From a virus, in the UHGV virus genome UHGV-0192279: 50,405 nt of DNA; one strand, written 5' to 3'. Shown here piece by piece: positions 3,297 to 42,952 of this stretch. The notes under the pieces are model-generated. The model saw only the letters and a program-made list of their open reading frames with translations. It was not told the origin of the DNA and searched no databases. How positions within the stretch are numbered: position 1 is the first letter of the stretch; the number at the start of each line of letters is the position of its first letter. The position numbers and the translations under genes were made by a program.

Positions 3297-3773
3297 ATGT
3301 CTCAGACTTGCGAAAAAGGCGCGTTTTTAGGCCGTGACGTTGCTGTATTCTTCGCTATCGCTTGTCCAAATGCGAAGCCGGTAGCTAGCGATTATAAAGA
3401 GTTAGGCATGATGCGCGGAAAAACGCTTTCCGTCGAATGGGAAACCGCAGACGCCACCGCCGATAAATCAGCCGATTACACGAAGGAATCAATGGTTACT
3501 TACAAATCCGTTTCTTTCTCCGGCGACGGTGTATCCCGTACTGAGGGAATCCATAATCAGAAAGTGCTGAAACGCCACGTAATTACGCCAGACAAAACCA
3601 CTGGATCACAACCTTATGTATGGCTAAAGATCGTTTCTCCTGTAGACGTAACCGAAGGCCCATTCCTTTGCACTTCCTTTAAAGAAGAAGATCCGCACGA
3701 TGATGTTTCTACCTGGTCTATTGAGTGCGAAAGCGCTGGACAGGTAACGGTAGGCGATATCCCATCGGAATAA
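3297..3773 (+). CDS. major tail (tube) protein (158 aa)
   Basis: AAGAGG SD; position before chaperone and tape measure genes; followed by strong terminator. Confidence 0.5.
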   Translation: MSQTCEKGAFLGRDVAVFFAIACPNAKPVASDYKELGMMRGKTLSVEWETADATADKSADYTKESMVTYKSVSFSGDGVSRTEGIHNQKVLKRHVITPDKTTGSQPYVWLKIVSPVDVTEGPFLCTSFKEEDPHDDVSTWSIECESAGQVTVGDIPSE

Positions 3774-3815: not shown

Positions 3816-3827
3816 AGGGTGATAACT

Positions 3828-4505
3828 ATGATTCATGTTCGGACCGGGCAATTTGCGGCGGTGGTAGACGGTAGGCGGTATGTGTTTAATCCCTGCTTCG
3901 CCGCGATGGCAAAAATAGGCAGTGACAGAGAACTGGTCGAATATTTTGCAACAATCCACGGCGGCAAATATCCATCACGCTTGCCAGCAGACCCAGACTT
4001 ACGCAATCGCATTCTGGCGCGGTGTTATGGTGAAATAGTGCAGACATCAATGCACATCCTGAAATGTTGCTCAGACGATGAAATAGGCCCGTTATTGGGC
4101 GAGTGTAGGTTTACTCCTTCGGGCAAGTTGCGACTAAAACCAGGCTTGATGCCTACTGACGACGTTATCACGCTGGCGCAGCATTGCGTGTACCACGGCT
4201 TAATCGGTGATGGGCCGGAAGAAGATGCCGGAGAAATCCCGGAAGGGGAATATAAGCCGACTTTTAACGTCCTTGAATTCGTCTATTCTGCCGTTGCTCA
4301 CCTGGGCTTGTCAGAATCGGAAGCATGGAATATGACAATGACCGGATATAGGGCCACTGTACGCGCTAAAACGCCGCCAGACGAAAGAAGCGAAAGAAGT
4401 AAGCCAAACGTTCACATAAATAAACGTGCTTATGACGAGCAAATGGAGGCCGCTAAAAAGGCGCTAAAAAGAATGGAAAATCGCAAGCAAGAAAAAGCCC
4501 GGTAG
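3828..4505 (+). CDS. tail assembly chaperone (G/GT position), 225 aa
   Basis: ATG at 3828 with AGGGTGA SD (track start 3819 is GTG); located between major tail and tape measure genes. Confidence 0.45.
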   Translation: MIHVRTGQFAAVVDGRRYVFNPCFAAMAKIGSDRELVEYFATIHGGKYPSRLPADPDLRNRILARCYGEIVQTSMHILKCCSDDEIGPLLGECRFTPSGKLRLKPGLMPTDDVITLAQHCVYHGLIGDGPEEDAGEIPEGEYKPTFNVLEFVYSAVAHLGLSESEAWNMTMTGYRATVRAKTPPDERSERSKPNVHINKRAYDEQMEAAKKALKRMENRKQEKAR

Positions 4506-4513
4506 ATCCGGGC
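4492..4513. terminator. bidirectional hairpin terminator
   Basis: A5-GCCCGG-tagat-CCGGGC-GTTTGTCTT; T-run on minus strand is clean, sits 8 nt downstream of minus-strand gene 4521-4934. Confidence 0.5.
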
Positions 4514-4520
4514 GTTTGTC

Positions 4521-4934
4521 TTATTTGATTCTAACAATATCAATAAAACCGTTACCTAAATTGACAATTGCGTGATTTTTTGCGCCAGCGCCGCCTTTAT
4601 TAAAAATTCTTTCAGCGAAAGCAATTTTATTTGCTTTACACTCGTTAGCTATCCTGTTTTTTATTTCGCTGTTGTTTTCAAAGCCTACGCTTGCAGCAGC
4701 CTCGATTACAAGGCCATAATTAAACCAACGAGCATAAACTGGTTTACCTTCAAAAATTTTATCAATTACCTTAAAAAGAATTTTGGGTGCGGCTGGTTCT
4801 TTTTTGATCATGTCGTGATATGCGGCTACATGGTTTGCCACTTCTTCACAGTTAATGTTTATGGCCTCGTTAGCGTTCGCGTTAAATGCCAGTGCAGCAA
4901 TCACAGCAAGTACCATTTTTGCTAACCGTTTCAT
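4521..4934 (-). CDS. secreted accessory (moron) protein with signal peptide (137 aa)
   Basis: N-terminus MKRLAKMVLAVIAALAFNANA-NEA is a classic Sec signal with AxA cleavage site; GGGGG SD; antisense to tail operon; AT-rich flanks. Confidence 0.6.
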   Translation of the reverse strand: MKRLAKMVLAVIAALAFNANANEAININCEEVANHVAAYHDMIKKEPAAPKILFKVIDKIFEGKPVYARWFNYGLVIEAAASVGFENNSEIKNRIANECKANKIAFAERIFNKGGAGAKNHAIVNLGNGFIDIVRIK

Positions 4935-5001
4935 AATTAACCCCCGTAATTATTCTGATTTGCTAAATGCTTCATTTAACTTAGTTATACACGCATATTG
5001 T

Positions 5002-5085
5002 TTATTTTTTAAGTGCTTTTAACATTTCTTCGATAAGGTCCGCATAGCGTTCATATTCGTTGGGACGGTAGTTTACGTTTCTCAT
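5002..5085 (-). CDS. 27-aa leader ORF of antisense cassette (MRNVNYRPNEYERYADLIEEMLKALKK)
   Basis: ATG preceded by AAAGAGGATAAGGAA SD; first ORF after candidate minus-strand promoter. Confidence 0.25.
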   Translation of the reverse strand: MRNVNYRPNEYERYADLIEEMLKALKK

Positions 5086-5155
5086 TTCCTTATCCTCTTT
5101 CACTTCCTCCGGGACATCCGTCCTTCCTGCATCTCTTCTATCTTTCCCTACATCA

Positions 5156-5184
5156 TTTATACAAAACGGTATCGTTAAAGTAAA
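5156..5184 (-). promoter_or_regulatory. candidate sigma70 promoter for antisense cassette
   Basis: Minus strand TTTACT -17 nt- TATAAA; TACA-N3-TGT motif abuts the -35 on its upstream side. Confidence 0.3.
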
Positions 5185-5235
5185 GACATTTTGTATAAAA
5201 TAGATGCATAGATCACATTTGCATGAGGTTAAATC

Positions 5236-7584
5236 ATGGCTACCAGTGTAGGCACAATTTATTACGAAGTTGACGCAAAAACAGGACAACTTCTTGTAGC
5301 ACAACGACAGGCAGACCAGGCCTTTGACCGTATAGAGCGCGGTGCTAAACAGGCAGATCGCCAGGTAAACACACTGAAAACATCAATCAAAGCACTGACC
5401 AAGGTTATCTATCTGCTAATTGCTGCCGAGGCCGTTAGACAGTTTATGGAAATGGCAGAGCAGGCCAAAATGCTTCGCGTAAAAATCAAAATGCTTACGG
5501 GCGATGCGGAGTCCGCCGGACGGGTTTTCGACGGCCTGAAAGCAATATCCAGGGAAACAGGGCAAAGCCTGAAGGATACTGGCGAGTTATGGCAAGGTCT
5601 TGCCATCTCACTGAAGAACACGTCAGCTACGGAAGGGCAATTACTTAACCTGGTTGGCACTATTCAGAAAATGGGGGCGTTAGGCGGCGCATCAGCGGAA
5701 CAGATGTCTAACTCTATGCGCCAGTTCCGCCAGTCTATAGACGGCGGCGTGCTGCGTGCTGAAGAATTTAACAGCCTACTTGAAAACACCCCGACCATCG
5801 TACAGACAATGGCCCGTCAGATGGGGTTATCTATGGGCAAGTTCCGCGCCGAAATGCTGGACGGCAAGATCACGGCAGAAAGGATGGTTAACGCAATCCA
5901 GGCGGCTACGCAGGAAACAAACGAGCAGTTTGCTCAGTTGCCGCGCACATCCGGCATGGCTATCAATGAGCTTAAAGTCGAAATCATGGGGCTTGTTGAA
6001 CAGCTTGATGATCTTTTCGGCGTATCAGATGGCGTAGTCTCAGCTATCGACTTAATCACAAAAGGCGTTAAGGGGTTAGGTGAGGGCGCTAAATTCGCTA
6101 AAACCTGCTTCGATACACTCAAAACGGCTGGTGGCGAATTCATCGACATGTTTGATGATGTGGCTGTGAAGGCTGGCGAGGTGGCAGAGAAGATCATCGC
6201 AATGGTGACGCCAATCAAGGCACTTATGGACGCCTACAAATGGATGAAGGAGGTTGTAGATAAGCGCAAGGAAGAACTAAATAGCAACAATGAGAAGAAA
6301 TTCGGCCCTACAGTCGGTAAAGTCATGACTTTTGCAAACGACATTAAAAACGCGACTGCCGCTTATGATGAGTTTATGCAGAAACAGGCAGAAGCCAACG
6401 ACGGCAAGATCACCGGATTCGACAAGCCAGTTGATAAGCCTAAAAAGGGTAAGAAGACTGGCAGCAAGAAAAGCAAAGAGGATACGCTTGGTGACAAGGG
6501 TATAAGCGTTTCTGACCAGTACAATAAAGACACCGCCGCCATGCGCAAAGCGTTAGAGAACGGCAAGGCCATTGATGCTGCATTCGCCCAGGGTAAAATC
6601 ACCCTCCTTGAGTACCGCGCCGCGCAAAAAGGGATAGTTAAGGAACGGGATGAAGAATTAGCCCAAATTCAGGTAGATGAATTGCGTGATAAATGGGCGC
6701 AAATAGTAAGCCCGATGAATCAGCTTAAAGGCGAGGTTGACCCTATTAAGCAGGTACAAGATGAATGGGCCGTCCGTAAGCAAAAGCTTATCGACCTGGG
6801 CGCTACCGAAGCGCAACAGAAACAGGCATTGTTAGCCTATGAGCAACAGATCCGCGATCTGAAATGGGAGCAATGGCAGGCGCAAAGCCAGACAAACGGC
6901 CTGATCGGTGATTGCGTTAATGGCCTTAAAGGTGGTATGAGCAATGCGCTTGTCGGCCTGCTTAACGGTACTCAATCATTGAGCGATGTTTTTGCTAACT
7001 TAGGGAGCAATATACTAGGGAATATTGGCAACAGACTTTCTGATATAGCAGCCGACTGGATAGCAGATCAGATCATGATGGAAACACAAAGCAAGGCAAC
7101 TCAAGCAAGTACAACGGCAAGCGCGGTTGCCGCTCAGGGAAGCATCGCGGCGGCGGCGGCCCCGGCGGCGGCGGCAACGGCTGCATCAACTGGCGGTAGC
7201 TGGGCGGCGGCTGGTTCGGCGGCGCTTACTGCGATCACGTCGCTGGCAACATCCATTTTCGGCGGCGGGCGCTTTAATGGTGGTAGCGTAATTGGTGGCA
7301 ATATGTACCGCGTCGGGGAACATAACAGGCCGGAGCTATTCCAGACGTCTAACGGCAACCAATACATGATCCCCGGCGAGAATGGCAGGGTTATCCCGGG
7401 GCGTGATATTGGCGGCGGCGGCGGCGGTATCAGTATGCCTGTTTACATCGACATTCAAACCACAAACGGATTTAGTGACGAAGACAGCCGCAGACTTGAA
7501 CAGACAATGGAACGTGTAGCAATGAAAATGATAACAAGGGAATCGCAAAGACCTGGCGGGATGTTGCAACCGCGCCGCAAATAA
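5236..7584 (+). CDS. tail tape measure protein (782 aa)
   Basis: Largest ORF between chaperone and tail-tip genes; long alpha-helical sequence with Ala/Gly-rich C-terminal region. Confidence 0.85.
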   Translation: MATSVGTIYYEVDAKTGQLLVAQRQADQAFDRIERGAKQADRQVNTLKTSIKALTKVIYLLIAAEAVRQFMEMAEQAKMLRVKIKMLTGDAESAGRVFDGLKAISRETGQSLKDTGELWQGLAISLKNTSATEGQLLNLVGTIQKMGALGGASAEQMSNSMRQFRQSIDGGVLRAEEFNSLLENTPTIVQTMARQMGLSMGKFRAEMLDGKITAERMVNAIQAATQETNEQFAQLPRTSGMAINELKVEIMGLVEQLDDLFGVSDGVVSAIDLITKGVKGLGEGAKFAKTCFDTLKTAGGEFIDMFDDVAVKAGEVAEKIIAMVTPIKALMDAYKWMKEVVDKRKEELNSNNEKKFGPTVGKVMTFANDIKNATAAYDEFMQKQAEANDGKITGFDKPVDKPKKGKKTGSKKSKEDTLGDKGISVSDQYNKDTAAMRKALENGKAIDAAFAQGKITLLEYRAAQKGIVKERDEELAQIQVDELRDKWAQIVSPMNQLKGEVDPIKQVQDEWAVRKQKLIDLGATEAQQKQALLAYEQQIRDLKWEQWQAQSQTNGLIGDCVNGLKGGMSNALVGLLNGTQSLSDVFANLGSNILGNIGNRLSDIAADWIADQIMMETQSKATQASTTASAVAAQGSIAAAAAPAAAATAASTGGSWAAAGSAALTAITSLATSIFGGGRFNGGSVIGGNMYRVGEHNRPELFQTSNGNQYMIPGENGRVIPGRDIGGGGGGISMPVYIDIQTTNGFSDEDSRRLEQTMERVAMKMITRESQRPGGMLQPRRK

Positions 7585-7588
7585 CACT

Positions 7589-7615
7589 AAGGCCGCTATA
7601 AGCGGCCTTTATTTT
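7589..7615 (+). terminator. rho-independent terminator after tape measure gene
   Basis: AGGCCGCT-ata-AGCGGCCT hairpin followed by TTTATTTT. Confidence 0.55.
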
Positions 7616-7901
7616 ACATGGTAAGGATATAAATTAAACAGCACAGGAATGCGGGCGCGGCGAAGTCGCAAACGCTAGCCATATTCCATGCTTTTGGTAA
7701 AAAACCACCATACCACGGCATTCTTTCTCGTTTCCCTCCGCAAAATTCCGCTATGTAACGATATTCAGCCTGTGTGTGTTCCCGCGCAAAAAAGAATGTA
7801 CATCCAATCAGGCCGCCAGTGAGATAATCACCAGTAAGCAGGCCGATAACAACCTGTATAGTCGCCGCAGCCAGTGCGTGACCAATAACGGTTAAATCCA
7901 T
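7614..7901 (-). CDS. small membrane protein (95 aa, about 2 TM helices)
   Basis: Hydrophobic segments; last gene of four-gene antisense cassette. Confidence 0.45.
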   Translation of the reverse strand: MDLTVIGHALAAATIQVVIGLLTGDYLTGGLIGCTFFFAREHTQAEYRYIAEFCGGKRERMPWYGGFLPKAWNMASVCDFAAPAFLCCLIYILTM

Positions 7902-7903
7902 CG

Positions 7904-8089
7904 TTAATCCTCCCGATCGTTCTCAAATGTGCCATCTACAAATTTTTGCAGCCCGGCGATAAGTTGTGTTGCCTGCGATTTTTCAATTACTATGGTTTCA
8001 GTCCCCATAAGTTCGGTTATCCACAGCCGACCATCCTCATCAAGATCTAACCTAACTCCGTAACATAACTCTGTTTCGTCAATAATCAT
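7904..8089 (-). CDS. small acidic protein (61 aa)
   Basis: AGGAGG SD upstream of ATG; preceded by palindrome GTTACGT-gcg-ACGTAAC. Confidence 0.45.
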   Translation of the reverse strand: MIIDETELCYGVRLDLDEDGRLWITELMGTETIVIEKSQATQLIAGLQKFVDGTFENDRED

Positions 8090-8198
8090 TTTTCCTCCTA
8101 TAATCTTCCGTTACGTGCGACGTAACCCCTGCCGAACATCACTAACCAGATGTTCCAGATCTCCCGCTAGGTATATTTCTCCTCCTCCATATTCCACC

Positions 8199-8459
8199 TC
8201 ACTTATGAGCGCCTTTCACTCCGCAATGACAGTTGTATTCCAGGTGATCGATAATTAACCAAATATTCAAATCTTCACTGAACAGCCGCCAGTCAGGATT
8301 GATATCGAATTTAAAGCCATAACCATCACGTAATTTTTTGGGGCGGGCTTCTTTTTTCAGGAAGGCGTTAAGCAACTTCTTGCCTTTCTTGATTACCCGT
8401 TCCTGTGCATTCTTTTGTGCTTTCAGGTTTTTTCGATAGTTACCAGTTTCATAACTCAC
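8199..8459 (-). CDS. small basic protein (86 aa)
   Basis: GTG start with AAGGA SD; Lys/Arg-rich N-terminal half. Confidence 0.4.
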   Translation of the reverse strand: MSYETGNYRKNLKAQKNAQERVIKKGKKLLNAFLKKEARPKKLRDGYGFKFDINPDWRLFSEDLNIWLIIDHLEYNCHCGVKGAHK

Positions 8460-8469
8460 CCCATCGTCC

Positions 8470-8625
8470 TTAGTTAAGCGCCCTCAGGAAGAAATCCCGG
8501 TATTCATCATTCTTCGCGTTCATCATGAATTGACCGTATTTGAATGCGTCGTCGAAACCCTTAACAATTGCTACTTCCACTTGCTCGAATGCGTTGTTTA
8601 GCATCACTACTACATAGCTACTCAT
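8470..8625 (-). CDS. 51-aa ORF (MSSYVVVMLNNAFEQ...)
   Basis: Below 60-aa track cutoff; ATG with GTGAGG SD; first gene of antisense cassette. Confidence 0.3.
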   Translation of the reverse strand: MSSYVVVMLNNAFEQVEVAIVKGFDDAFKYGQFMMNAKNDEYRDFFLRALN

Positions 8626-8709: not shown

Positions 8710-8795
8710 TTGGCTATAATTCTTGTGTCGAATATCTCATTTTTCGCGTAGAAGTGCGTAAAGATATATACAAAATGTAACTTACAGGAGGGGGT

Positions 8796-9448: not shown

Positions 9449-9697
9449 TCATAACGCCCCCTTCAAATATGTCAATCCCTTATCAGTGACGAATGAATGG
9501 TTTACCTGGTTTTCATCCGTCATGATGATGAATAACTTTTCCTGTAGGTATTTCGCTTTTGGGTACAGCGTTAAACAGACCTGGTACAAAACCCCGCGCT
9601 CAATCAGCAAATCAATAAATTCGTGCTCATGATAACCGATAAGGCGGGCGGCCTGTTTCAACGTGTACACATAGTCACCGTGATTGCGCCGCGTCAT
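9449..9697 (-). CDS. small HTH-like protein (82 aa)
   Basis: Helix-turn-helix-like segment YTLKQAARLIGYHEHEFIDLLIERGVL; last gene of three-gene antisense cassette. Confidence 0.4.
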   Translation of the reverse strand: MTRRNHGDYVYTLKQAARLIGYHEHEFIDLLIERGVLYQVCLTLYPKAKYLQEKLFIIMTDENQVNHSFVTDKGLTYLKGAL

Positions 9698-9706
9698 ATT
9701 GCCACC

Positions 9707-10033
9707 TTATTTGCCGAACGCTCCCAGGTTGTCGATACAGAAATCTTTTGCCGCTTTTTCGTATTCACGTTTTGCTTGCGGATCATCTGCCGGGAAACCT
9801 TTTACGTGTATTTCACTAGGACAAGCCTGATCCATAGAGTTGGCAAAATTAACATTGAAGTTAACATTAATATCTTTCGGGTTCATATCTTCCACCTTAT
9901 CCGCTATTTGTACTGGAATGATTTTAAATTCCCTGGCGCGTCCGAAGAATCGAACAAGTTTTTCACCTTCCTCGATCGCCATTTCGTGACTATCATACAA
10001 GCCGTAACCTTCCCAATCCTTACTTCCTGCCAT
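9707..10033 (-). CDS. hypothetical protein (108 aa)
   Basis: ORF in antisense cassette; no recognisable motif. Confidence 0.4.
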   Translation of the reverse strand: MAGSKDWEGYGLYDSHEMAIEEGEKLVRFFGRAREFKIIPVQIADKVEDMNPKDINVNFNVNFANSMDQACPSEIHVKGFPADDPQAKREYEKAAKDFCIDNLGAFGK

Positions 10034-10081
10034 CCATACATCGAGACGATATTTTGCATGGTGTTACCTTTGTGTTTATTG

Positions 10082-10240
10082 TCATGCGTATCTGTTGTAG
10101 CTATTAGCCTTGCAAGCGTAATACTGACGTTCGGCTATATGGAACGGTTTTCCCATCTCTTTGATAAGAACATCCATAAATTTTTTCATGTCGCCTTTCA
10201 CTTCAACAAAAACTTTCTCTGCGTATTTTGCGGGTCTCAT
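10082..10240 (-). CDS. 52-aa ORF (MRPAKYAEKVFVEVKGD...)
   Basis: Below track cutoff; ATG at cassette 5' end with weak SD. Confidence 0.25.
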   Translation of the reverse strand: MRPAKYAEKVFVEVKGDMKKFMDVLIKEMGKPFHIAERQYYACKANSYNRYA

Positions 10241-10300
10241 AGTGTTCTACCTTGTTCAAAGTTGTGCCATTTTGTTGACTCCCCTTCGTTTGAGTAAAAT

Positions 10301-10314
10301 ATACATATTGTAAA
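10301..10314 (+). repeat. 14-bp repeat ATACATATTGTAAA copy 2
   Basis: Exact copy of 8696-8709, 67 nt upstream of the L start codon. Confidence 0.6.
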
Positions 10315-10380
10315 AATATGGATCAATCCATTTTGGCATGATCTTGCGTGATGCAGATCACAAAATGACAAGGTGAGAAA

Positions 10381-12306: not shown

Positions 12307-15300
12307 ATGAGTAGCGGCGGCGGTGGTAAAGCAAAAACACCAACATTAATAAACGATAACCTTTATCACAAACAGTTTTATCGTGTACTCGATATTATTT
12401 CAGAAGGGCCGATTTATGGCCCTGTCAATACAAAAGCGCCATTAAATAGCGTGATGCTTAATGACACGCCTGTTACTGACGCAAACGGAAATACAAGCGT
12501 TCATGGTGTTAGTGTGGCGTGGCGTAACGGCACGTTAGATCAATCTCCGATTAACGGTTTTAACGGCATTGAATCAACCACTATTGTTAACGCTAAGGTA
12601 ACTCACGACACGCCAATAATCAGGACTGTTTCCGATCCTAACGTAAACCGCGTTCGCCTGAATATCGGCGTGGATTCGCTTGTGCAGTCTGACGAGCAAA
12701 GCAATCAACATAACACATCCGTAATGATGGCGATTGAAGTTAAACCATCCTCATTTTCGGCATGGTCGCTGGCTAAAAGCGTAACCATCGGCCCGGGTAA
12801 GCAGAGCGGCGAATATCTCGAATCTCATGTCATTAACGCTCCAAATGAAAGACCTTTCGATATTCGCGTTCGCCGTGTAACAGCCGATAGCACAAGCGAT
12901 CTATTGCAGAATGATACGAGATGGAGTAGTTACAGCGAAATAATCGACGATAATTTGTCTTATCCTCACACCGCTGTAGCTGGCGCGGTGATTGATCATG
13001 ATCAGTACGCTGACACGCCTACCCGCACTTATCACCTGCGCGGGCTGATTGTTGATGTTCCTGATAACTATAACCCGGAAACTCGCACTTATTCCGGTTT
13101 ATGGCTTGGCGGATTCAAACAGGCATACAGTAATAACCCCGCCTGGATATTCCGCTATCTGGTTAAAAACAGGCGTTTCGGCCTTGCCCGTCATGCTGGC
13201 TATATTGACGTTGACGACGGCGCATTATATACGCTTTCTCAATACTGCGATCAGCTGGTCGATGATGGTTATGGCGGCCTTGAGCCTCGCATGACGCTTA
13301 ATGCTTACATTACGGAGCAGATGAGCGCCCGCGACTTACTGGACAATATCGCCGGGATGTTCCGAGGCATCGCGTTATGGGACGGGCAACGCCTCACCGT
13401 GATGATTGATGCACCACAAGACCCGATCGCCACCATTACAAACGCAAACGTCGTTGACGGGGCGTTCACTCGATCGAGTATCTCCCGCGCGGAATGCTAC
13501 AACGCCGTGATTGTGTCCTGGACTGACCCGGAAAACGGCTGGGAGCAATCAAAAGAGTATGTAGCAGATGATGAGCTAATCGCCCGCGATGGTTACAACG
13601 AAACCACGATGGAGGCGTTCGGCTGTACGTCACGCGGGCAAGCGCACCGCGCGGGCAAATGGCTGATAGAAACAGCAAAACGCGAGCCGTCAAAATTCAC
13701 GTTTAAAATGGCGCGTGACGCAATTCACTTTACGCCAGGGGATATAATCGAGATCCTCGACAATAACCGCGCTGGCGCTCGCTTAGGCGGTCGCATCGTG
13801 GCGAACAATGGTAAAGTGATAACGGTAGATAAGGTCGATTCAGAATATATTGCGGCTGGCGACACTATAAGTCTTCTTGATAGCGATGGAAAATTTAAAA
13901 AACATCAGATCACTGGTGTTAACGGGAACAAAATCACACTGGCAGCGGCCCCGGCATGGATTCGGAACGGGACTGTTTTTGCTGTATCAACCGAAGCAGC
14001 AAAACCCGTTTTATGCAGGATCACCAGCGTAGCCGAAACTGAAAACAACAGCGTGTACACCATCGAGGCCGCGCAGCACGACCCGAACAAACAAGCGGTA
14101 GTCGATGAAGGCGCAATATTTGAAATCAACAACGACACGCTTAATCATTTCCGCGTTCCGAACATAGAAAACCTGAAAGTAATAAACATTGCGTCAGAGA
14201 CTGTTCAATGCCGCGCTACATGGGAAACACAGACAACTACGCATCGCATGACCTTCGAGATCCGCATATACAATGCAGATGGTGCGGTGGTTAAAAGCTA
14301 TGAAACCACGAAATATAGTTATGATTTTTATGGTATTGAAGCTGGCGTGTATTCTTTAGGCGTTCGCGGAAGAAATGATACTGGCATGAAGGGTGCAGAA
14401 AGTATCGTTGACCTTGTTATCGGTGCGCCAGCAGCACCGATCGGCGTTAATTGGGTTCCCGGCGTATTTCAGGCGACCGTGTACCCGATAAGCAAAACCA
14501 CACTTACTACCGATACGTCATACGAATTCTACTATGCAGGGGAAAACCAGATCACAGATCCGGCAAAAATAACCACGTCGGCACAGTTTACCGGGCGCGG
14601 TTATCAGTGGACTTTTGGCGGCATGAACACGGGCCACACTTATTACGTTTATGTTCGCACTCGTAATGCTTTTGGTGTGTCTGATTTCGTCGAGGCATCA
14701 GGTAAGCCAACAGAGGATTTTGACGAAATCACTGATTACGTTACAAAGGATGTAATGGAATCAGAGCAATTCAAAGAGATGATTAGCGATATTAAAGATC
14801 TTGGCGATCGCACTGATATTATAGAAAGTGCGACCAACGACCTTAAATCCGCTACTGACGACCTTAAGGCAGCCACCGACGACCTTAAAGCTGACACAGA
14901 TACACTTAAAAAAGACACCGAAGACCTTTATAAAAAAGTCGAAGAAAACGCCGATGGAATAGGCAAACATGAGGTAAGAATAGACTCATTAGAGGTATCA
15001 AACGAAAACGTTAACAACGAACTGGCACAGACAAAAGCAAGTTTACAAAACGCTTCGCTTGCTCTGATCAATAACTCGCTTGCTCAAACTAACACGCGGG
15101 TTACTCTTACCGCTCAATATAAGAAAGGTCGCAACGAAACGAAGGCACAGATTGACCGCATCGACAACGTTATCGCAGAGGAGAAAAAAGCGACAGCGGA
15201 ATCACTGGAAACCATCACAGCCGAAATAAATACGATGGACTCAAACATCAAAGGAGAAATAGCCCGAGTAGACAAAGCAATGGCAACCGAAACGCAGGCG

Positions 15301-16524
15301 AGAACGGAGGCTATAAGCAACGTTAACGCCAGTATCAGCAGCCTGGAAAACAAAACTGATGCGAGCGTTTCTCGTCTCGATAAAGCAATATCAGATGAAA
15401 TGCAGGCAAGAAGCGACGCAATAACAGAGGTTAAAGCTGATTTAACAACGCTTGAAAATAGCACAAATGCCAGTGTTAGCCGCCTGGATCAAGCTATCGC
15501 TGACGAATCAAGTGCGCGCGCTCAGGCAATATCAGGTATCAGTGCGGAGCTTGGTCTTGTTGAAAATGAGGTTGATAAAAACAGCGACGAAATAGATCAG
15601 GCGAAAGCAAGTCTGCAAAACGCCTCGATTGCACTTATCAACAACTCAATAGCGCAAAGTAAAATGAGCACTGTTATTGAGGCAAAATACAGGAAAGGCC
15701 AGACAAAAACAAAAGCAGAAATAGCAAGGGTCGACACAGCAATAGCGGACGAAACCCAGGCCCGCGCGGAAGCTATAGCATCACTTGAAGCCAATATTAA
15801 TGAAAATATTTCAGCAAAAATAACAGATATATCAACGGCGCTCGCTACTCACGAGGCATCAAGTGCTGAAAAATTTGTCCAAATATCGGCATCTTTCGAC
15901 GATGTAAACTCAAGCATCACTGAATGGTCGCAGGCCATGACAACGGCGGACGAGGCATTATCAACCAAAATTGATCAGCTGAAAGTGACCGTTAACGGGA
16001 ACACAACAGCGATCGAGACAACATCGAAAGCGTTAACCGATTTCAAAGGCAACGTTGATGCGTCATATTCAATCAAGCTCGCCACCGATAACAACGGCAT
16101 GAAATACGCTACAGGTATGTCGCTTGGATTGACTGGAGACGGGACTAACTTTCAGTCACAGTGTATTTTCCTTGTTGATCGCTTTGTGTTAATGACTGCC
16201 GCAAACGGTACATATCAAACGCCTTTCTACGTTCAAAATGGCTCTTGCTATATACGCGACGCATGGATCAAAGACGCAACAATCACAAGTGCTAAGATCG
16301 CACAGCAGATACAATCATCTAACTACGCGTCAGGATCCGCAGGGTGGATGATTAATAAAGATGGTAGAGCTGAATTTAACAACGTTACCGTGAGAGGTAG
16401 TGTTATTGTTCAAGGCGGCGGAACATTTAGCATGACGAGGAGCGACGGGCGCGTAATTCTTAATAATAACGGTGTTAGAGTTAATCTGCCGAATGGTGGC
16501 GTGATAATACTTGGATACTGGTAA
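12307..16524 (+). CDS. J: host-specificity/central tail fibre protein J (1405 aa)
   Basis: Colinear similarity to lambda gpJ across N-terminal 1000 aa (SEGPI.GPV, YHLRG..., FGCTSRGQAHRAGKWL...); C-terminal part contains coiled-coil repeats. Confidence 0.95.
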   Translation: MSSGGGGKAKTPTLINDNLYHKQFYRVLDIISEGPIYGPVNTKAPLNSVMLNDTPVTDANGNTSVHGVSVAWRNGTLDQSPINGFNGIESTTIVNAKVTHDTPIIRTVSDPNVNRVRLNIGVDSLVQSDEQSNQHNTSVMMAIEVKPSSFSAWSLAKSVTIGPGKQSGEYLESHVINAPNERPFDIRVRRVTADSTSDLLQNDTRWSSYSEIIDDNLSYPHTAVAGAVIDHDQYADTPTRTYHLRGLIVDVPDNYNPETRTYSGLWLGGFKQAYSNNPAWIFRYLVKNRRFGLARHAGYIDVDDGALYTLSQYCDQLVDDGYGGLEPRMTLNAYITEQMSARDLLDNIAGMFRGIALWDGQRLTVMIDAPQDPIATITNANVVDGAFTRSSISRAECYNAVIVSWTDPENGWEQSKEYVADDELIARDGYNETTMEAFGCTSRGQAHRAGKWLIETAKREPSKFTFKMARDAIHFTPGDIIEILDNNRAGARLGGRIVANNGKVITVDKVDSEYIAAGDTISLLDSDGKFKKHQITGVNGNKITLAAAPAWIRNGTVFAVSTEAAKPVLCRITSVAETENNSVYTIEAAQHDPNKQAVVDEGAIFEINNDTLNHFRVPNIENLKVINIASETVQCRATWETQTTTHRMTFEIRIYNADGAVVKSYETTKYSYDFYGIEAGVYSLGVRGRNDTGMKGAESIVDLVIGAPAAPIGVNWVPGVFQATVYPISKTTLTTDTSYEFYYAGENQITDPAKITTSAQFTGRGYQWTFGGMNTGHTYYVYVRTRNAFGVSDFVEASGKPTEDFDEITDYVTKDVMESEQFKEMISDIKDLGDRTDIIESATNDLKSATDDLKAATDDLKADTDTLKKDTEDLYKKVEENADGIGKHEVRIDSLEVSNENVNNELAQTKASLQNASLALINNSLAQTNTRVTLTAQYKKGRNETKAQIDRIDNVIAEEKKATAESLETITAEINTMDSNIKGEIARVDKAMATETQARTEAISNVNASISSLENKTDASVSRLDKAISDEMQARSDAITEVKADLTTLENSTNASVSRLDQAIADESSARAQAISGISAELGLVENEVDKNSDEIDQAKASLQNASIALINNSIAQSKMSTVIEAKYRKGQTKTKAEIARVDTAIADETQARAEAIASLEANINENISAKITDISTALATHEASSAEKFVQISASFDDVNSSITEWSQAMTTADEALSTKIDQLKVTVNGNTTAIETTSKALTDFKGNVDASYSIKLATDNNGMKYATGMSLGLTGDGTNFQSQCIFLVDRFVLMTAANGTYQTPFYVQNGSCYIRDAWIKDATITSAKIAQQIQSSNYASGSAGWMINKDGRAEFNNVTVRGSVIVQGGGTFSMTRSDGRVILNNNGVRVNLPNGGVIILGYW

Positions 16525-16556
16525 TAAAAAGCCCCTACATAGGGGCTTTATTTTTC
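16525..16556. terminator. bidirectional terminator between convergent J and antisense gene
   Basis: A5-AGCCCCT-acat-AGGGGCT-T3AT5; T-runs on both strands. Confidence 0.65.
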
Positions 16557-17517
16557 AATACATTGCTGGTAACAGCGGGTAATTAATGTTAGCGATAGCG
16601 TTTACATGCCTCCCATTTGTCCTTGCAACTATCAGACTCCCCCTGCTTGGTCTAATGTATCCACCTGATCTTATTGCGCCGTAATAGTAATAATAGTACA
16701 TATTTATGTTTTTCTCAGTTAACGCGCCGTATCTTGCTATAGGAACGAATGCATTGCCTATATATTGATTACCATTAGCCATGTTAAATGTACCACCAAA
16801 AACAAACGGCCTTTGTGCCGTTGAGAACACAACCTGACCGGATGCATTCCTCATTACCAATCCAGCATTGCCAGCAGCAGGAGTCTGCCTTCTAAATACA
16901 ACTAAATCCATGTTAACAGTTGCGTCAACGGTGATGTAATCACTCCCTAGCGCGACTCTTGTACACTTTATGGTGTTCCCTGATCTTTCAACAACAACAT
17001 TAGGATCATCCCATCTACCAAACGCCACCACAGTTCCAGACGGCAAATTATAAGTCCCAGTAAACGTAATGTTCCCAGCGTAAGTGCAACATAATAAATT
17101 AGAATTCGTTGTTATCGTAGTGAAATCAGTTGAATCTCTTATATATAAACCAGCTCCGCTATTGCTTGGGTATCCTATTTCAAAAAACAAACCGCTAACC
17201 AGTACGGTATCACCTTCCCATCCGGGCCCGTTTGCATAACCAAAATCTACCTTCCATTGAGTAGAGTTTAACTTAGTAACATTGCTGATCCAGCATACAT
17301 TAGTAGTTGGATAAACTTCTTTTATAGTTGCAGGCTTTAATGAAAAGAAAAAACCGTCACTACCACCAGGGAAGCAGGTTGGCATTGTGAATGTATAGCT
17401 TGTGGTTTCGGCGGGAATTGACCCAAACGATCCGCAATATGACGGCGCTCTTAATCCTGAAGTAATTTCCATCGCCGGACGGCCATCATTAAGATCTATG
17501 TATAAACCTTGCCCCAT
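16555..17517 (-). CDS. hypothetical beta-rich protein (320 aa), antisense between J and tail fibre
   Basis: GGGGGAA SD before ATG; Gly/Thr/Asn/Tyr-rich with YYYYYYG run; no signal peptide recognised. Confidence 0.5.
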   Translation of the reverse strand: MGQGLYIDLNDGRPAMEITSGLRAPSYCGSFGSIPAETTSYTFTMPTCFPGGSDGFFFSLKPATIKEVYPTTNVCWISNVTKLNSTQWKVDFGYANGPGWEGDTVLVSGLFFEIGYPSNSGAGLYIRDSTDFTTITTNSNLLCCTYAGNITFTGTYNLPSGTVVAFGRWDDPNVVVERSGNTIKCTRVALGSDYITVDATVNMDLVVFRRQTPAAGNAGLVMRNASGQVVFSTAQRPFVFGGTFNMANGNQYIGNAFVPIARYGALTEKNINMYYYYYYGAIRSGGYIRPSRGSLIVARTNGRHVNAIANINYPLLPAMY

Positions 17518-41801: not shown

Positions 41802-42002
41802 ATGCTCGACAAAATACGGGAGACGTGCGCGTATGCAGTAGGGGCCGTAACGGCCTTTTTCGGTGCGATAACCATCAATGATGTTGCTGTCTTTGTGGGT
41901 ATCTTATCAACCGCAGGTACATTTGCCGTTAACTATTACTTCAAATCACAGGAGAACAAGCGAGCGCAAGAGGAACACGACGCGCGAATGGGGAATAAGT
42001 AA
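41802..42002 (+). CDS. holin, phage-21 S-like pinholin (66 aa)
   Basis: GGAGGT SD; two hydrophobic helices and charged C-terminus resembling S21 (…YFK..E..R). Confidence 0.7.
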   Translation: MLDKIRETCAYAVGAVTAFFGAITINDVAVFVGILSTAGTFAVNYYFKSQENKRAQEEHDARMGNK

Positions 42003-42494
42003 ATGATTAGCCAATCGCTGAAGAACAAGATTATTGCTGCGGCGGCTGGTGGGGCGATCTCTATTGCGGCTGTGATGGTTAAATCATTAGAAGGCGTGGA
42101 GTACGATCCGTATCGTGATGTTATCGGTGTATGGACTGTATGTTATGGTCATACCGGAAAAGACATCATGCTTGGTAAGACTTACACGCAATCAGAATGC
42201 GATGCTTTGTTAAATAAAGATCTCCACAAAACCGCAAAAGCGATCGACCCCTATATTAAAGTCGAAATATCAGATTTTACCCGCGCGGCGCTTTATTCAT
42301 TCGCCTATAACGTAGGCGCTACCAACTTTAAAACATCAACATTATTGAAGCTACTCAATGACGGCAAGAAATCGGAAGCGTGCGCACAGCTTAAACGCTG
42401 GATCTATGCTGGTGGTAAGCAGTGGCAAGGGTTAATTAACCGTCGTGATATTGAATATGCCGTTTGCGAATGGGGTGAAACATGGACAAGGTAA
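42003..42494 (+). CDS. SAR endolysin, lysozyme GH24 family (163 aa)
   Basis: N-terminal signal-anchor-release segment [17 protein letters not shown] followed by E-x8-D-x5-T catalytic motif ([23 protein letters not shown]) as in phage 21 R. Confidence 0.9.
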
Positions 42495-42952
42495 AGGCGT
42501 TAGTTATTGCCGTTGTTGTTTGCATTATTGCCGGACTAACTGCCGTTACATGTTATTACCAGGGTGAGGCGGCAAGGTTACAGGAAGAAGTCACGGTGAC
42601 GCAAGGCGCACTAAAAACAGCAAGTAACACTATTCAGCAGATGAAGGAGCGAAACGCAGAGCTATCAAAACTTGATAAGAGGTATCACGATGAAATTAAA
42701 GCTATCAGATCTGACATTGCCGATCTTCGCGCTGGCATTGATAGCGGCGCTATCAGGTTGCACGTCAACGCCGAGCCAGTGCGATTGCTCGACAATACCG
42801 GAACCGCCAGCCGCATTGATGGAGCCACCTGTAGACTCACTGCCGACGCTGAATCGGCTTATCTATCCCTCAGAGAACAACTAAAAGAGAAAGACGCGAA
42901 GATCACCGGATTGCAGGACTACATCAAAACGCAGTGCTTACGCAAAAAATAA
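42482..42952 (+). CDS. i-spanin (Rz-like), 156 aa
   Basis: N-terminal TM helix then coiled-coil periplasmic domain; overlaps endolysin end. Confidence 0.7.
42690..42884 (+). CDS. o-spanin (Rz1-like lipoprotein) embedded in +1 frame of i-spanin (64 aa)
   Basis: ATG 42690 with AAGAGG SD; lipobox LSGC after signal peptide; Pro-rich mature part. Confidence 0.6.
   Translation: MKLKLSDLTLPIFALALIAALSGCTSTPSQCDCSTIPEPPAALMEPPVDSLPTLNRLIYPSENN

Follow-up and report, generated by a model that had tools for sequence, protein, structure and literature searches.

Between two tail genes of the 50,405-nt virus genome UHGV-0192279 (the window, to whose full length all coordinates refer), we found an antisense cassette that encodes a secreted protein of an apparently new family. 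The minus strand from 4487 to 5199 reads as a complete small transcription unit with a promoter-like site, two open reading frames (ORFs), and a hairpin. From 5' to 3', its elements are TTTACT-17-TATAAA, the Shine-Dalgarno (SD) sequence GAGG, a 27-codon ORF (s27), a 67-nt spacer that contains GGGGG, a 137-codon ORF (P137), and the hairpin. This region is a moron in the original Juhala/Hendrix definition, because (i) its flanking genes are adjacent in most distant relatives, (ii) its G+C content deviates from that of its surroundings, (iii) it has its own terminator together with a conserved promoter-like site, and (iv) its presence is patchy. An earlier note, made from this sequence without database searches, had described an antisense moron in the tail operon that codes for a secreted protein. 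All the elements it listed for the minus-strand cassette are in place, and the adjacent flanks in relatives, the base composition, the terminator, and the export signal support its principal claim. Morons are a known class; new here is the P137 family, in a slot of unusually regular modular design.

The cassette is flanked on the right by the tape measure protein gene and on the left by a gene of the DUF6246 family. The earlier note had called the left neighbor a tail chaperone; its position between the tail tube and tape measure genes is as described and is what suggests that it acts as a tail-assembly chaperone, whereas its family assignment is DUF6246. The note had also described the region as AT-rich relative to its flanks and, indeed, the G+C content is 0.35-0.40 over 4500-5250 (0.37 for the whole slot) versus 0.47-0.53 in the flanks. 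The region is 90% identical to Escherichia phage MagusPhagus, and the left flank matches mEp554, mEp013, and mEp515; judging from these matches, the phage is a temperate coliphage of the mEpimmI (mEp021-like) group. Members of this group are non-lambdoid, temperate coliphages that depend on Nus and use N- and Q-type antitermination (PMC11893012).

P137 and s27 are real protein-coding genes, because their ratios of nonsynonymous to synonymous polymorphism (pN/pS) are 0.21 and 0.10, respectively, and those of most off-frames exceed 1. Among 17 distinct homologous DNA sequences, four of the five other frames of P137 gave ratios of 1.2-1.7, and the fifth, an antisense frame, gave 0.30, yet contained 3-4 stops in every sequence. 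For s27, the off-frames gave 1.15 and 1.58. A 117-amino-acid plus-strand ORF overlying P137 was rejected as a shadow, with a ratio of 1.42 and stops in relatives.

The N terminus of P137 (MKRLAKMVLAVIAALAFNANA, followed after the predicted cleavage site by NEAIN) has the features of a Sec signal peptide, namely (i) a positively charged n-region, MKRLAK (+3); (ii) an 11-residue hydrophobic core, MVLAVIAALAF, within the 7-15 residues expected of an h-region; and (iii) a c-region, NANA, with alanines at positions -3 and -1, after which the mature protein would begin with NE. The signal peptide comprises codons 1-21 (4872-4934), leaving a mature part of 116 residues (4524-4871), and lacks a lipobox. 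This pattern is retained in 13 of 13 aligned homologs, in which the sequence of the h-region varies while staying hydrophobic and AFNANA is invariant, so that the note's reading of a Sec signal peptide with its predicted cleavage after ANA fits all of them. With a pN/pS of 0.31, versus 0.19 for the mature part, the signal peptide is the faster-evolving portion of the protein. In a heuristic signal-peptide scan of the window's ORFs, P137 was the only one that combined the pattern with a real coding signal. The c-region (4872-4889, minus strand) is itself polymorphic in length: NANA, encoded here by AACGCG AACGCT, occurs elsewhere as NANANA or NANANANA, i.e. with two or four more residues, which looks like hexanucleotide slippage that preserves the A-x-A cleavage motif.

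The mature part of P137 contains no hydrophobic segment. AlphaFold2 (AF2) models it with a predicted local distance difference test score (pLDDT) of 87.4 and a predicted template modeling score of 0.82, as an N-terminal strand, five helices, and a C-terminal β-hairpin; the full-length protein gave a pLDDT of 79. In the alignment of the 13 homologs, the mean column identity is 82%, and Cys29 and Cys99 are invariant, with no cysteine preceding residue 29. Because both cysteines are invariant in an exported protein, they probably form a periplasmic disulfide.

Searches for relatives returned little beyond the family itself. A word-indexed homology search found 17 P137 clusters of 67-100% identity, all of them in E. 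coli genomes or Caudoviricetes contigs. P137 had no family match in Pfam (E ≤ 0.1), PHROG, NCBIfam, or PADLOC, and the PADLOC defense models, when searched at E ≤ 1, yielded no families for P137, s27, or DUF6246. A sequence search of the Protein Data Bank with the P137 family profile returned noise (E ≥ 0.5), and a Foldseek comparison of the P137 model with BFVD gave no match at E ≤ 0.001. Besides one family cluster and one fragment, an exhaustive HMMER profile search of 1.84 billion representatives yielded three repeat proteins, two of them eukaryotic EF-hand proteins and the third a β-prism protein. Residues 38-74 of P137 align to the EF-hand repeat of the two eukaryotic proteins. We rejected an EF-hand assignment: repetition inflates the summed scores, a single unit reached a probability of 44% in hhalign, and there was no EF-hand Pfam hit. 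Moreover, the putative 12-residue loop, in which acidic or polar ligands are expected at positions 1, 3, 5, and 12 and glycine at 6, agrees at positions 1 (D/N), 5 (E), and 6 (G) but deviates at 3, 8, and 12, so that the set of calcium ligands is not conserved. The homology search and structure prediction proposed in the note therefore gave a confident AF2 model with no relatives by sequence or by BFVD fold, and homology to an ordinary virion assembly factor, which was looked for as well, was not found (no PHROG structural family). As far as these searches reach, P137 is a new protein family with no detectable relatives outside the family.

We surveyed the slot in 74 viral contigs carrying a relative of DUF6246 by measuring the gap from this gene to the tape measure gene. 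The contigs were divided into an E. coli group, with at least 80% identity (55 loci, 43 distinct slots), and distant relatives with 31-41% identity. In 11 distinct distant slots, the gap is 20-102 bp; a few distant loci have 0.9-1.5-kb inserts of their own. All 55 E. coli-group loci contain an insert of 646-1322 bp with a G+C content of 0.37-0.41, and in every one (55 of 55) the cargo is encoded on the strand opposite to the tail genes. The slot has constant borders, on the terminator side as well as on the side of the tape measure start.

The cargo is not constant and comprises P137, VasI-like and BamE-like lipoproteins, small membrane proteins, and other secreted proteins. The architectures found were s27 and P137 (16 loci); s27, a VasI-like lipoprotein of 219 residues, and a BamE/OsmE-like lipoprotein of 124 residues (10 loci); s27, a 35-residue membrane peptide, and a 100-residue two-span membrane protein (9 loci); the VasI-like lipoprotein and a 106-residue soluble protein, sol106 (8 loci); P137 and the membrane peptide (4 loci); P137 and the BamE-like lipoprotein (2 loci); Sec119 (2 loci); Sec119, the membrane peptide, and the 100-residue membrane protein (2 loci); sol74 and Sec119 (1 locus); and Sec165 (1 locus). 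The s27 labels in these architectures come from loose clustering, and by motif search several of the slots so labeled lack s27 (e.g. L017, L019, and L046). The names Sec119 and Sec165 denote two further secreted proteins of the Sec type, 119 and 165 residues long. The VasI/TagO-like lipoprotein is assigned through PF11319 (E = 2e-16), whereas the BamE/OsmE-like assignment is weak. Of the nine cargo families other than s27, seven are exported, lipidated, or membrane-embedded, and no slot is without a member of these seven. In mEp554 (L002, PP180005.1), the deposited annotation of 5266-5817 consists of the plus-strand ORFs mEp554_92 and mEp554_93, and the conserved genes lie on the minus strand, where the slot holds s27, the 35-residue membrane peptide, and the 100-residue membrane protein; the two deposited ORFs look like strand-bias artefacts of the gene caller.

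The distribution of P137 is patchy in bacterial chromosomes, too. Among 5426 complete E. coli genomes, 29 contain the tail module in a chromosomal prophage, and 8 of these 29 carry a P137-family gene, always in single copy. The cassette found in E. coli PAR is 97% identical. In phage mEp021, the homolog is mEp021_63, annotated as "hypothetical protein" among neighbors labeled "virion structural protein". P137 is thus not a core or virion gene, since only 8 of the 29 genomes with the tail module have it and mEp021_63 carries the hypothetical label. These data also bear on whether P137 is an ordinary virion assembly factor or a tail component that merely happens to lie on the other strand, for which its location among tail genes speaks and nothing else. 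A protein that takes part in tail assembly in the cytoplasm could not carry a cleavable Sec signal peptide; about two thirds of the relatives that are otherwise collinear lack the gene and have unrelated proteins in its place; the G+C content of the gene deviates and it has its own terminator; and there is neither a virion annotation in mEp021 nor a PHROG structural family. We regard a virion role as hardly credible.

The different cargoes share the beginning of their genes. P137, Sec119, Sec165, and the VasI-like lipoprotein all start with MK(R/Q/S)L(A/V)K, and the three Sec-type proteins also share a signal peptide ending in NANA. Profile comparisons confined this similarity to residues 1-26 or 1-33; Sec119 and Sec165 were therefore rejected as remote P137 homologs, given that nothing beyond the signal peptide is similar. 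The DNA of the loci concerned (L004, L006, L018, L037, L049, and L086) shows near-complete identity from position -45 through the first ~30-45 nt of the ORF, after which identity falls to background. This drop places the recombination junction between the constant head and the variable body within the signal-peptide coding sequence.

Upstream of the cargo, s27 is the second recurrent gene of the slot. By motif search, it occurs in 29 of 43 distinct slots. All cargo types are found behind it in some slots, and most of them are found without it in others. Its product is hydrophilic, is 27-29 residues long across the group, and has no Pfam, PHROG, NCBIfam, or PADLOC match; a tblastn search of a phage database found it confined to mEpimmI-type phages. 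As s27 precedes every cargo and its amino-acid sequence is under selection, we consider it a small protein of the cassette head rather than a leader tuned to P137. The ORF that the earlier note had termed a 27-aa leader is thus present and coding, whereas its role as leader of the 137-aa gene did not stand.

A bolder reading of these observations is that the slot is a modular export cassette, in which a constant head (inverted-repeat promoter, a small protein of 27-29 residues, ribosome-binding site [RBS], and the first 10-15 signal-peptide codons) would be recombined with unrelated mature domains (P137, Sec119, Sec165, and the VasI-like protein), with P137 acting, through a new fold, as an inhibitor of tape-measure-dependent entry of the genome and s27 as a new small regulator of the cassette. 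In this full form, the proposal is rather unlikely. If it were true, the prophage group would gain a rapidly exchangeable repertoire of periplasmic factors.

The candidate σ70 promoter, TTTACT-17-TATAAA, matches the consensus at 9 of 12 positions and would place the minus-strand start near 5149. It was absent from the list of our consensus scan because the scan demands a T at the last -10 position, which here is an A. A 9/12 match in AT-rich DNA is not beyond chance, given that the stricter criterion of the scan yields 2.9 ± 1.9 hits per 1.4-kb shuffle. However, 110 bp adjoining the tape measure start are conserved in 33 distinct related sequences; the -10 hexamer reads TATAAA, TATAGA, or TATAAG, the -35 hexamer fits TTyAyT, and their position is conserved. 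It is this conservation, in 33 distinct sequences and ahead of every cargo type, that makes the candidate credible. The hexamers and the spacing given in the note are present and conserved, while the consensus match by itself is not significant, and we treat the site as a candidate promoter.

The most conserved element of the promoter region is an inverted repeat rather than the hexamers. In the window, the repeat is perfect over 11 bp, with arms 22 nt apart; in relatives it extends to 13-14 bp and takes the form TTTTATACAAAATG-N18-CATTTTGTATAAA, in which the arms are essentially invariant and the spacer is variable across the 33 sequences. The cargo -10 hexamer is the outer end of the right arm and the -35 hexamer lies within the spacer, whereas the left arm provides a mirror TATAAA that faces the tape measure gene, with a poor -35. 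This placement of the hexamers inside an invariant repeat suggests regulation or a divergent promoter pair. A role as an RNA hairpin in the late transcript was unsupported: the fold is not stabler than those of shuffled sequences (z = -0.29), and no compensatory changes were seen. On both grounds, we take a role at the DNA level to be more likely, either as back-to-back promoters or as an operator. Elsewhere in the window, the repeat arm has nine matches at ≤ 2 mismatches versus 3.3 expected.

The repeat could alternatively be a promoter or control site of the late operon that serves the tape measure gene, with the cargo transcribed from elsewhere or hardly at all. The mirror TATAAA lies 36 nt upstream of the tape measure ATG, the arms are more conserved than promoter hexamers require, and a conserved TGTGATC stands between the repeat and the tape measure RBS, all of which would fit such a role. 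The best evidence that the repeat region drives the cargo comes from slots without s27, in which only ~45 nt separate the repeat from the cargo ATG and no other upstream sequence is conserved. In addition, the plus-strand -35 is poor (3/6, by inspection), and expression of the cargo follows from the purifying selection acting on it. Control of the tape measure gene in place of the cargo is therefore distinctly unlikely, while the two roles are compatible with each other. The TGTGATC itself belongs to a site at 5213-5227 (AAATGTGATCT) with a perfect left half-site for CRP and a poor right half, the center of which is ~71 bp upstream of the predicted minus-strand start.

At the other end of the cassette, the hairpin GCCCGG-ATCTA-CCGGGC (4513-4497), with its downstream tract, folds at -15.8 kcal/mol (z = -4.76), and none of 200 shuffles folded as well. 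It is kept in 41 of 43 distinct slots, behind every cargo type, and the two exceptions are single stem mismatches; the terminator of the earlier note is thus both strong and conserved. It is bidirectional, with a weaker plus-strand reading, and overlaps the DUF6246 stop codon. An Rfam scan of 4300-5400 gave one sub-threshold hit, to a rimP leader over the terminator, which we judged to be a chance match.

From these elements, we propose the following course of events. A σ70 promoter beside the tape measure start would drive a minus-strand transcript that carries the s27 and P137 genes and stops at the hairpin terminator. Because the late operon is silent in a lysogen, the cassette would most likely be expressed from the prophage, and converging Q-antiterminated late transcription would probably dampen it during lytic growth. 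P137 would be exported by Sec, cleaved after Ala21, and probably oxidized at Cys29 and Cys99, and would remain periplasmic. As a small helical protein of this compartment, it would most likely block a periplasmic or inner-membrane step of genome entry by an incoming phage. T4 Spackle (Sp) and TP-J34 Ltp, to which P137 may be likened as a small exported helical protein, are mostly helical and block the entry of superinfecting phages from outside the cytoplasm, Spackle by inhibiting the tail lysozyme and Ltp by acting on the tape measure protein.

Superinfection exclusion at a post-adsorption step is the function that we tentatively favor, at somewhat less than an even chance, because HK97 gp15, encoded at the same position, blocks entry, the tested envelope-directed accessory genes of the mEpimmI group exclude, and the window is without such a lipoprotein. 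In HK97, gene 15 occupies the junction of the tail chaperone and tape measure genes; its product, made from the prophage, prevents genome entry, and sensitivity to gp15 maps to the tail tube or tape measure region (PMC3594210). The P137 cassette resembles gene 15 in genome position, deviant G+C content, and its own terminator; its candidate promoter, the predicted envelope location of its product, and its presumed prophage expression would match gene 15 as well. In contrast, HK97 gp15 is a single-pass inner-membrane YebO-like protein, whereas P137, with its cleavable signal peptide, is predicted to be a soluble protein of the periplasm and matches neither YebO nor any other family; moreover, the P137 cassette is antisense to the tail genes and contains an extra small gene.

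Within the mEpimmI group, the Lpp lipoproteins Lpp021 and Lpp010 exclude superinfecting phages when expressed, and the type-C Lpp of mEp554 (mEp554_111) is an antisense lipoprotein gene in the structural cluster, located after J (PMC11893012). P137 shares with them the phage group, an antisense position in the structural cluster (in the case of mEp554 type C), and an envelope-targeted product. However, the mEpimmI Lpp proteins are ~80 residues long and have a lipobox, whereas P137 has none, is unrelated in sequence, and occupies a different slot. Specifically, the lipobox [LVI][ASTVI][GAS]C of the Cor/Llp/Lpp class was not found in the P137 signal peptide, which ends in NANA; the Lpp primer sequences were absent from the window and from all fetched loci; and no Lpp-type lipoprotein was found in the window. 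We also considered whether the tested exclusion lipoproteins are themselves cargo of this slot and rejected this for type C, which lies after J; type A (mEp021 gp81) was not located. The slots of the two type-A carriers hold Sec119 (mEp515) and a P137 homolog (mEp021), with no lipoprotein in either.

The regulatory logic that we propose for the cassette is that of phi80 taiEcA, an antisense gene in a Q-controlled late operon that is on in the lysogen and turned down once Q acts, described as a "non-contiguous operon" (PMC11364771). In both, a divergent accessory gene interrupts the late operon. Unlike P137, TaiEcA is a cytoplasmic tail-assembly inhibitor with a paired counter-defense gene; it is encoded at another site and is unrelated to P137 in sequence.

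Four observations weigh against an exclusion cassette expressed from its own promoter. First, the candidate promoter, which agrees with the consensus at 9 of 12 positions, went unlisted in our scan, and its -10 degrades to TATAGA in the closest relatives. Second, two cargo families, sol106 and sol74, have no export signal. Third, the VasI-like lipoprotein points as much to inter-bacterial competition as to phage exclusion. Fourth, tape measure similarity is ~0.1 (0.06-0.13) higher among loci with the same cargo in a uniform manner, with no segment standing out, and this difference therefore reflects relatedness only.

The third of these observations leads to lysogenic conversion unrelated to phages, in which P137 would act like an immunity or stress protein and benefit host fitness, for example by protecting against colicins, type VI effectors, or envelope stress, or by altering a periplasmic process. 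The alternative VasI/TagO-like and, more weakly assigned, BamE/OsmE-like lipoproteins belong to families tied to type VI secretion and outer-membrane biology rather than to phages. Small size, a helical fold, and a disulfide bond, all three present or predicted in P137, are common among periplasmic immunity proteins. Furthermore, the host-benefit functions of morons are diverse (PMC3594210). However, P137 shows no similarity to a known immunity or stress protein in our sequence and fold searches, and the envelope-directed accessory genes tested in the mEpimmI group are exclusion factors. A host benefit of this kind is the main rival to exclusion, if on the unlikely side.

A further alternative places P137 in the lytic cycle, where the periplasmic protein, made during infection, would stop progeny from injecting into lysing cells or debris, as T5 Llp is said to do, or would modulate lysis. 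Since the promoter lies inside an invariant inverted repeat that may be an operator for a phage or host regulator, expression need not be constitutive, and an exported protein could work at either stage. Nevertheless, antisense orientation within a Q-antiterminated late operon disfavors late expression, as the phi80 precedent illustrates; the lysis genes are elsewhere, at ~42000-42950; and the P137 gene is dispensable in most of the phage group. We consider a lytic function quite improbable and retain superinfection exclusion as the preferred reading.

The positions of the cassette elements, their neighbors, and the main genes of a second antisense island are collected in Table 1.

Table 1. 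Cassette elements, flanking genes, and toxin-like locus of the second antisense island, in window coordinates
Feature	Position	Strand	Evidence or detail
Tail tube gene	3297-3773	+	Family scans (Pfam, PHROG)
DUF6246 gene, left flank	3819-4505	+	PF19759, E = 1.4e-54; phrog_791
Intrinsic terminator	4487-4513	-	6-bp G+C stem, 5-nt loop, then TTTTTCTTGC
P137 gene, 137-aa exported protein	4521-4934	-	SD GGGGG at 4941-4945, six nt before ATG
Small ORF s27, 27 aa, MRNVNYRPNEYERYADLIEEMLKALKK	5002-5085	-	SD GAGG at 5094-5097, 8 nt upstream
Candidate σ70 promoter	5156-5184	-	-35 TTTACT at 5184-5179, 17-nt spacer, -10 TATAAA at 5161-5156
Inverted repeat	5156-5199	.	Repeat search; arms TTTATACAAAA / TTTTGTATAAA
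Tape measure protein gene, right flank, 782 aa	5236-7584	+	PF20155 TMP_3, E = 1.5e-49; phrog_1538, E = 5e-149
ParE-like toxin domain protein	8199-8459	-	PF24732
51-aa ORF just upstream of the ParE-like gene, possibly its partner	8470-8625	-	

The window contains other genes antisense to the late operon. The second island (7614-8625, minus strand), between the tape measure and minor tail genes, holds a 61-aa ORF and a hydrophobic 95-aa ORF besides the ParE-like gene and its possible partner; a one-mismatch copy of the repeat arm, CATTTTGTATATA (8765-8777), stands at its upstream edge, without the same architecture. A third island (9449-10370, minus strand), between minor tail genes, encodes a KilAC/ANT-like protein of 82 residues (9449-9697) and contains ORFs of 108 and 52 residues. 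Upstream of it are a promoter-like TTGATC-17-TATATT (10326-10298) and a near-consensus CRP box, TGTGATCTGCATCACG (~10367-10352). An antisense DUF6453 gene of 320 residues (16555-17517, minus strand), with its own hairpin terminator, directly follows the J-like gene (12307-16524) and so occupies the post-J position at which mEp554 carries its type-C Lpp (mEp554_111). The only lipobox ORF in the window (42690-42884, plus strand) lies in the lysis region, in another frame inside a 156-aa ORF (42482-42952); it is probably an o-spanin-like gene embedded in an i-spanin gene, which is an expected arrangement.

Morons of tail operons are a known source of prophage-conferred traits, few of which have assigned functions. 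P137 adds to them a family confined to the gut-prevalent mEpimmI prophages of E. coli and, as its homolog mEp021_63 sits in a genetically tractable phage, an exclusion or conversion phenotype is directly testable. Our comparisons also flag annotation errors, namely the plus-strand shadow ORFs called in mEp554. More broadly, a second, non-lambdoid phage group uses the junction between the chaperone-position and tape measure genes, to which the term moron was originally attached in HK97, as a dedicated site for the exchange of envelope-directed cargo. Its fixed borders and the recombination junction in the signal-peptide codons form a pattern that helps to find envelope-acting prophage genes elsewhere.

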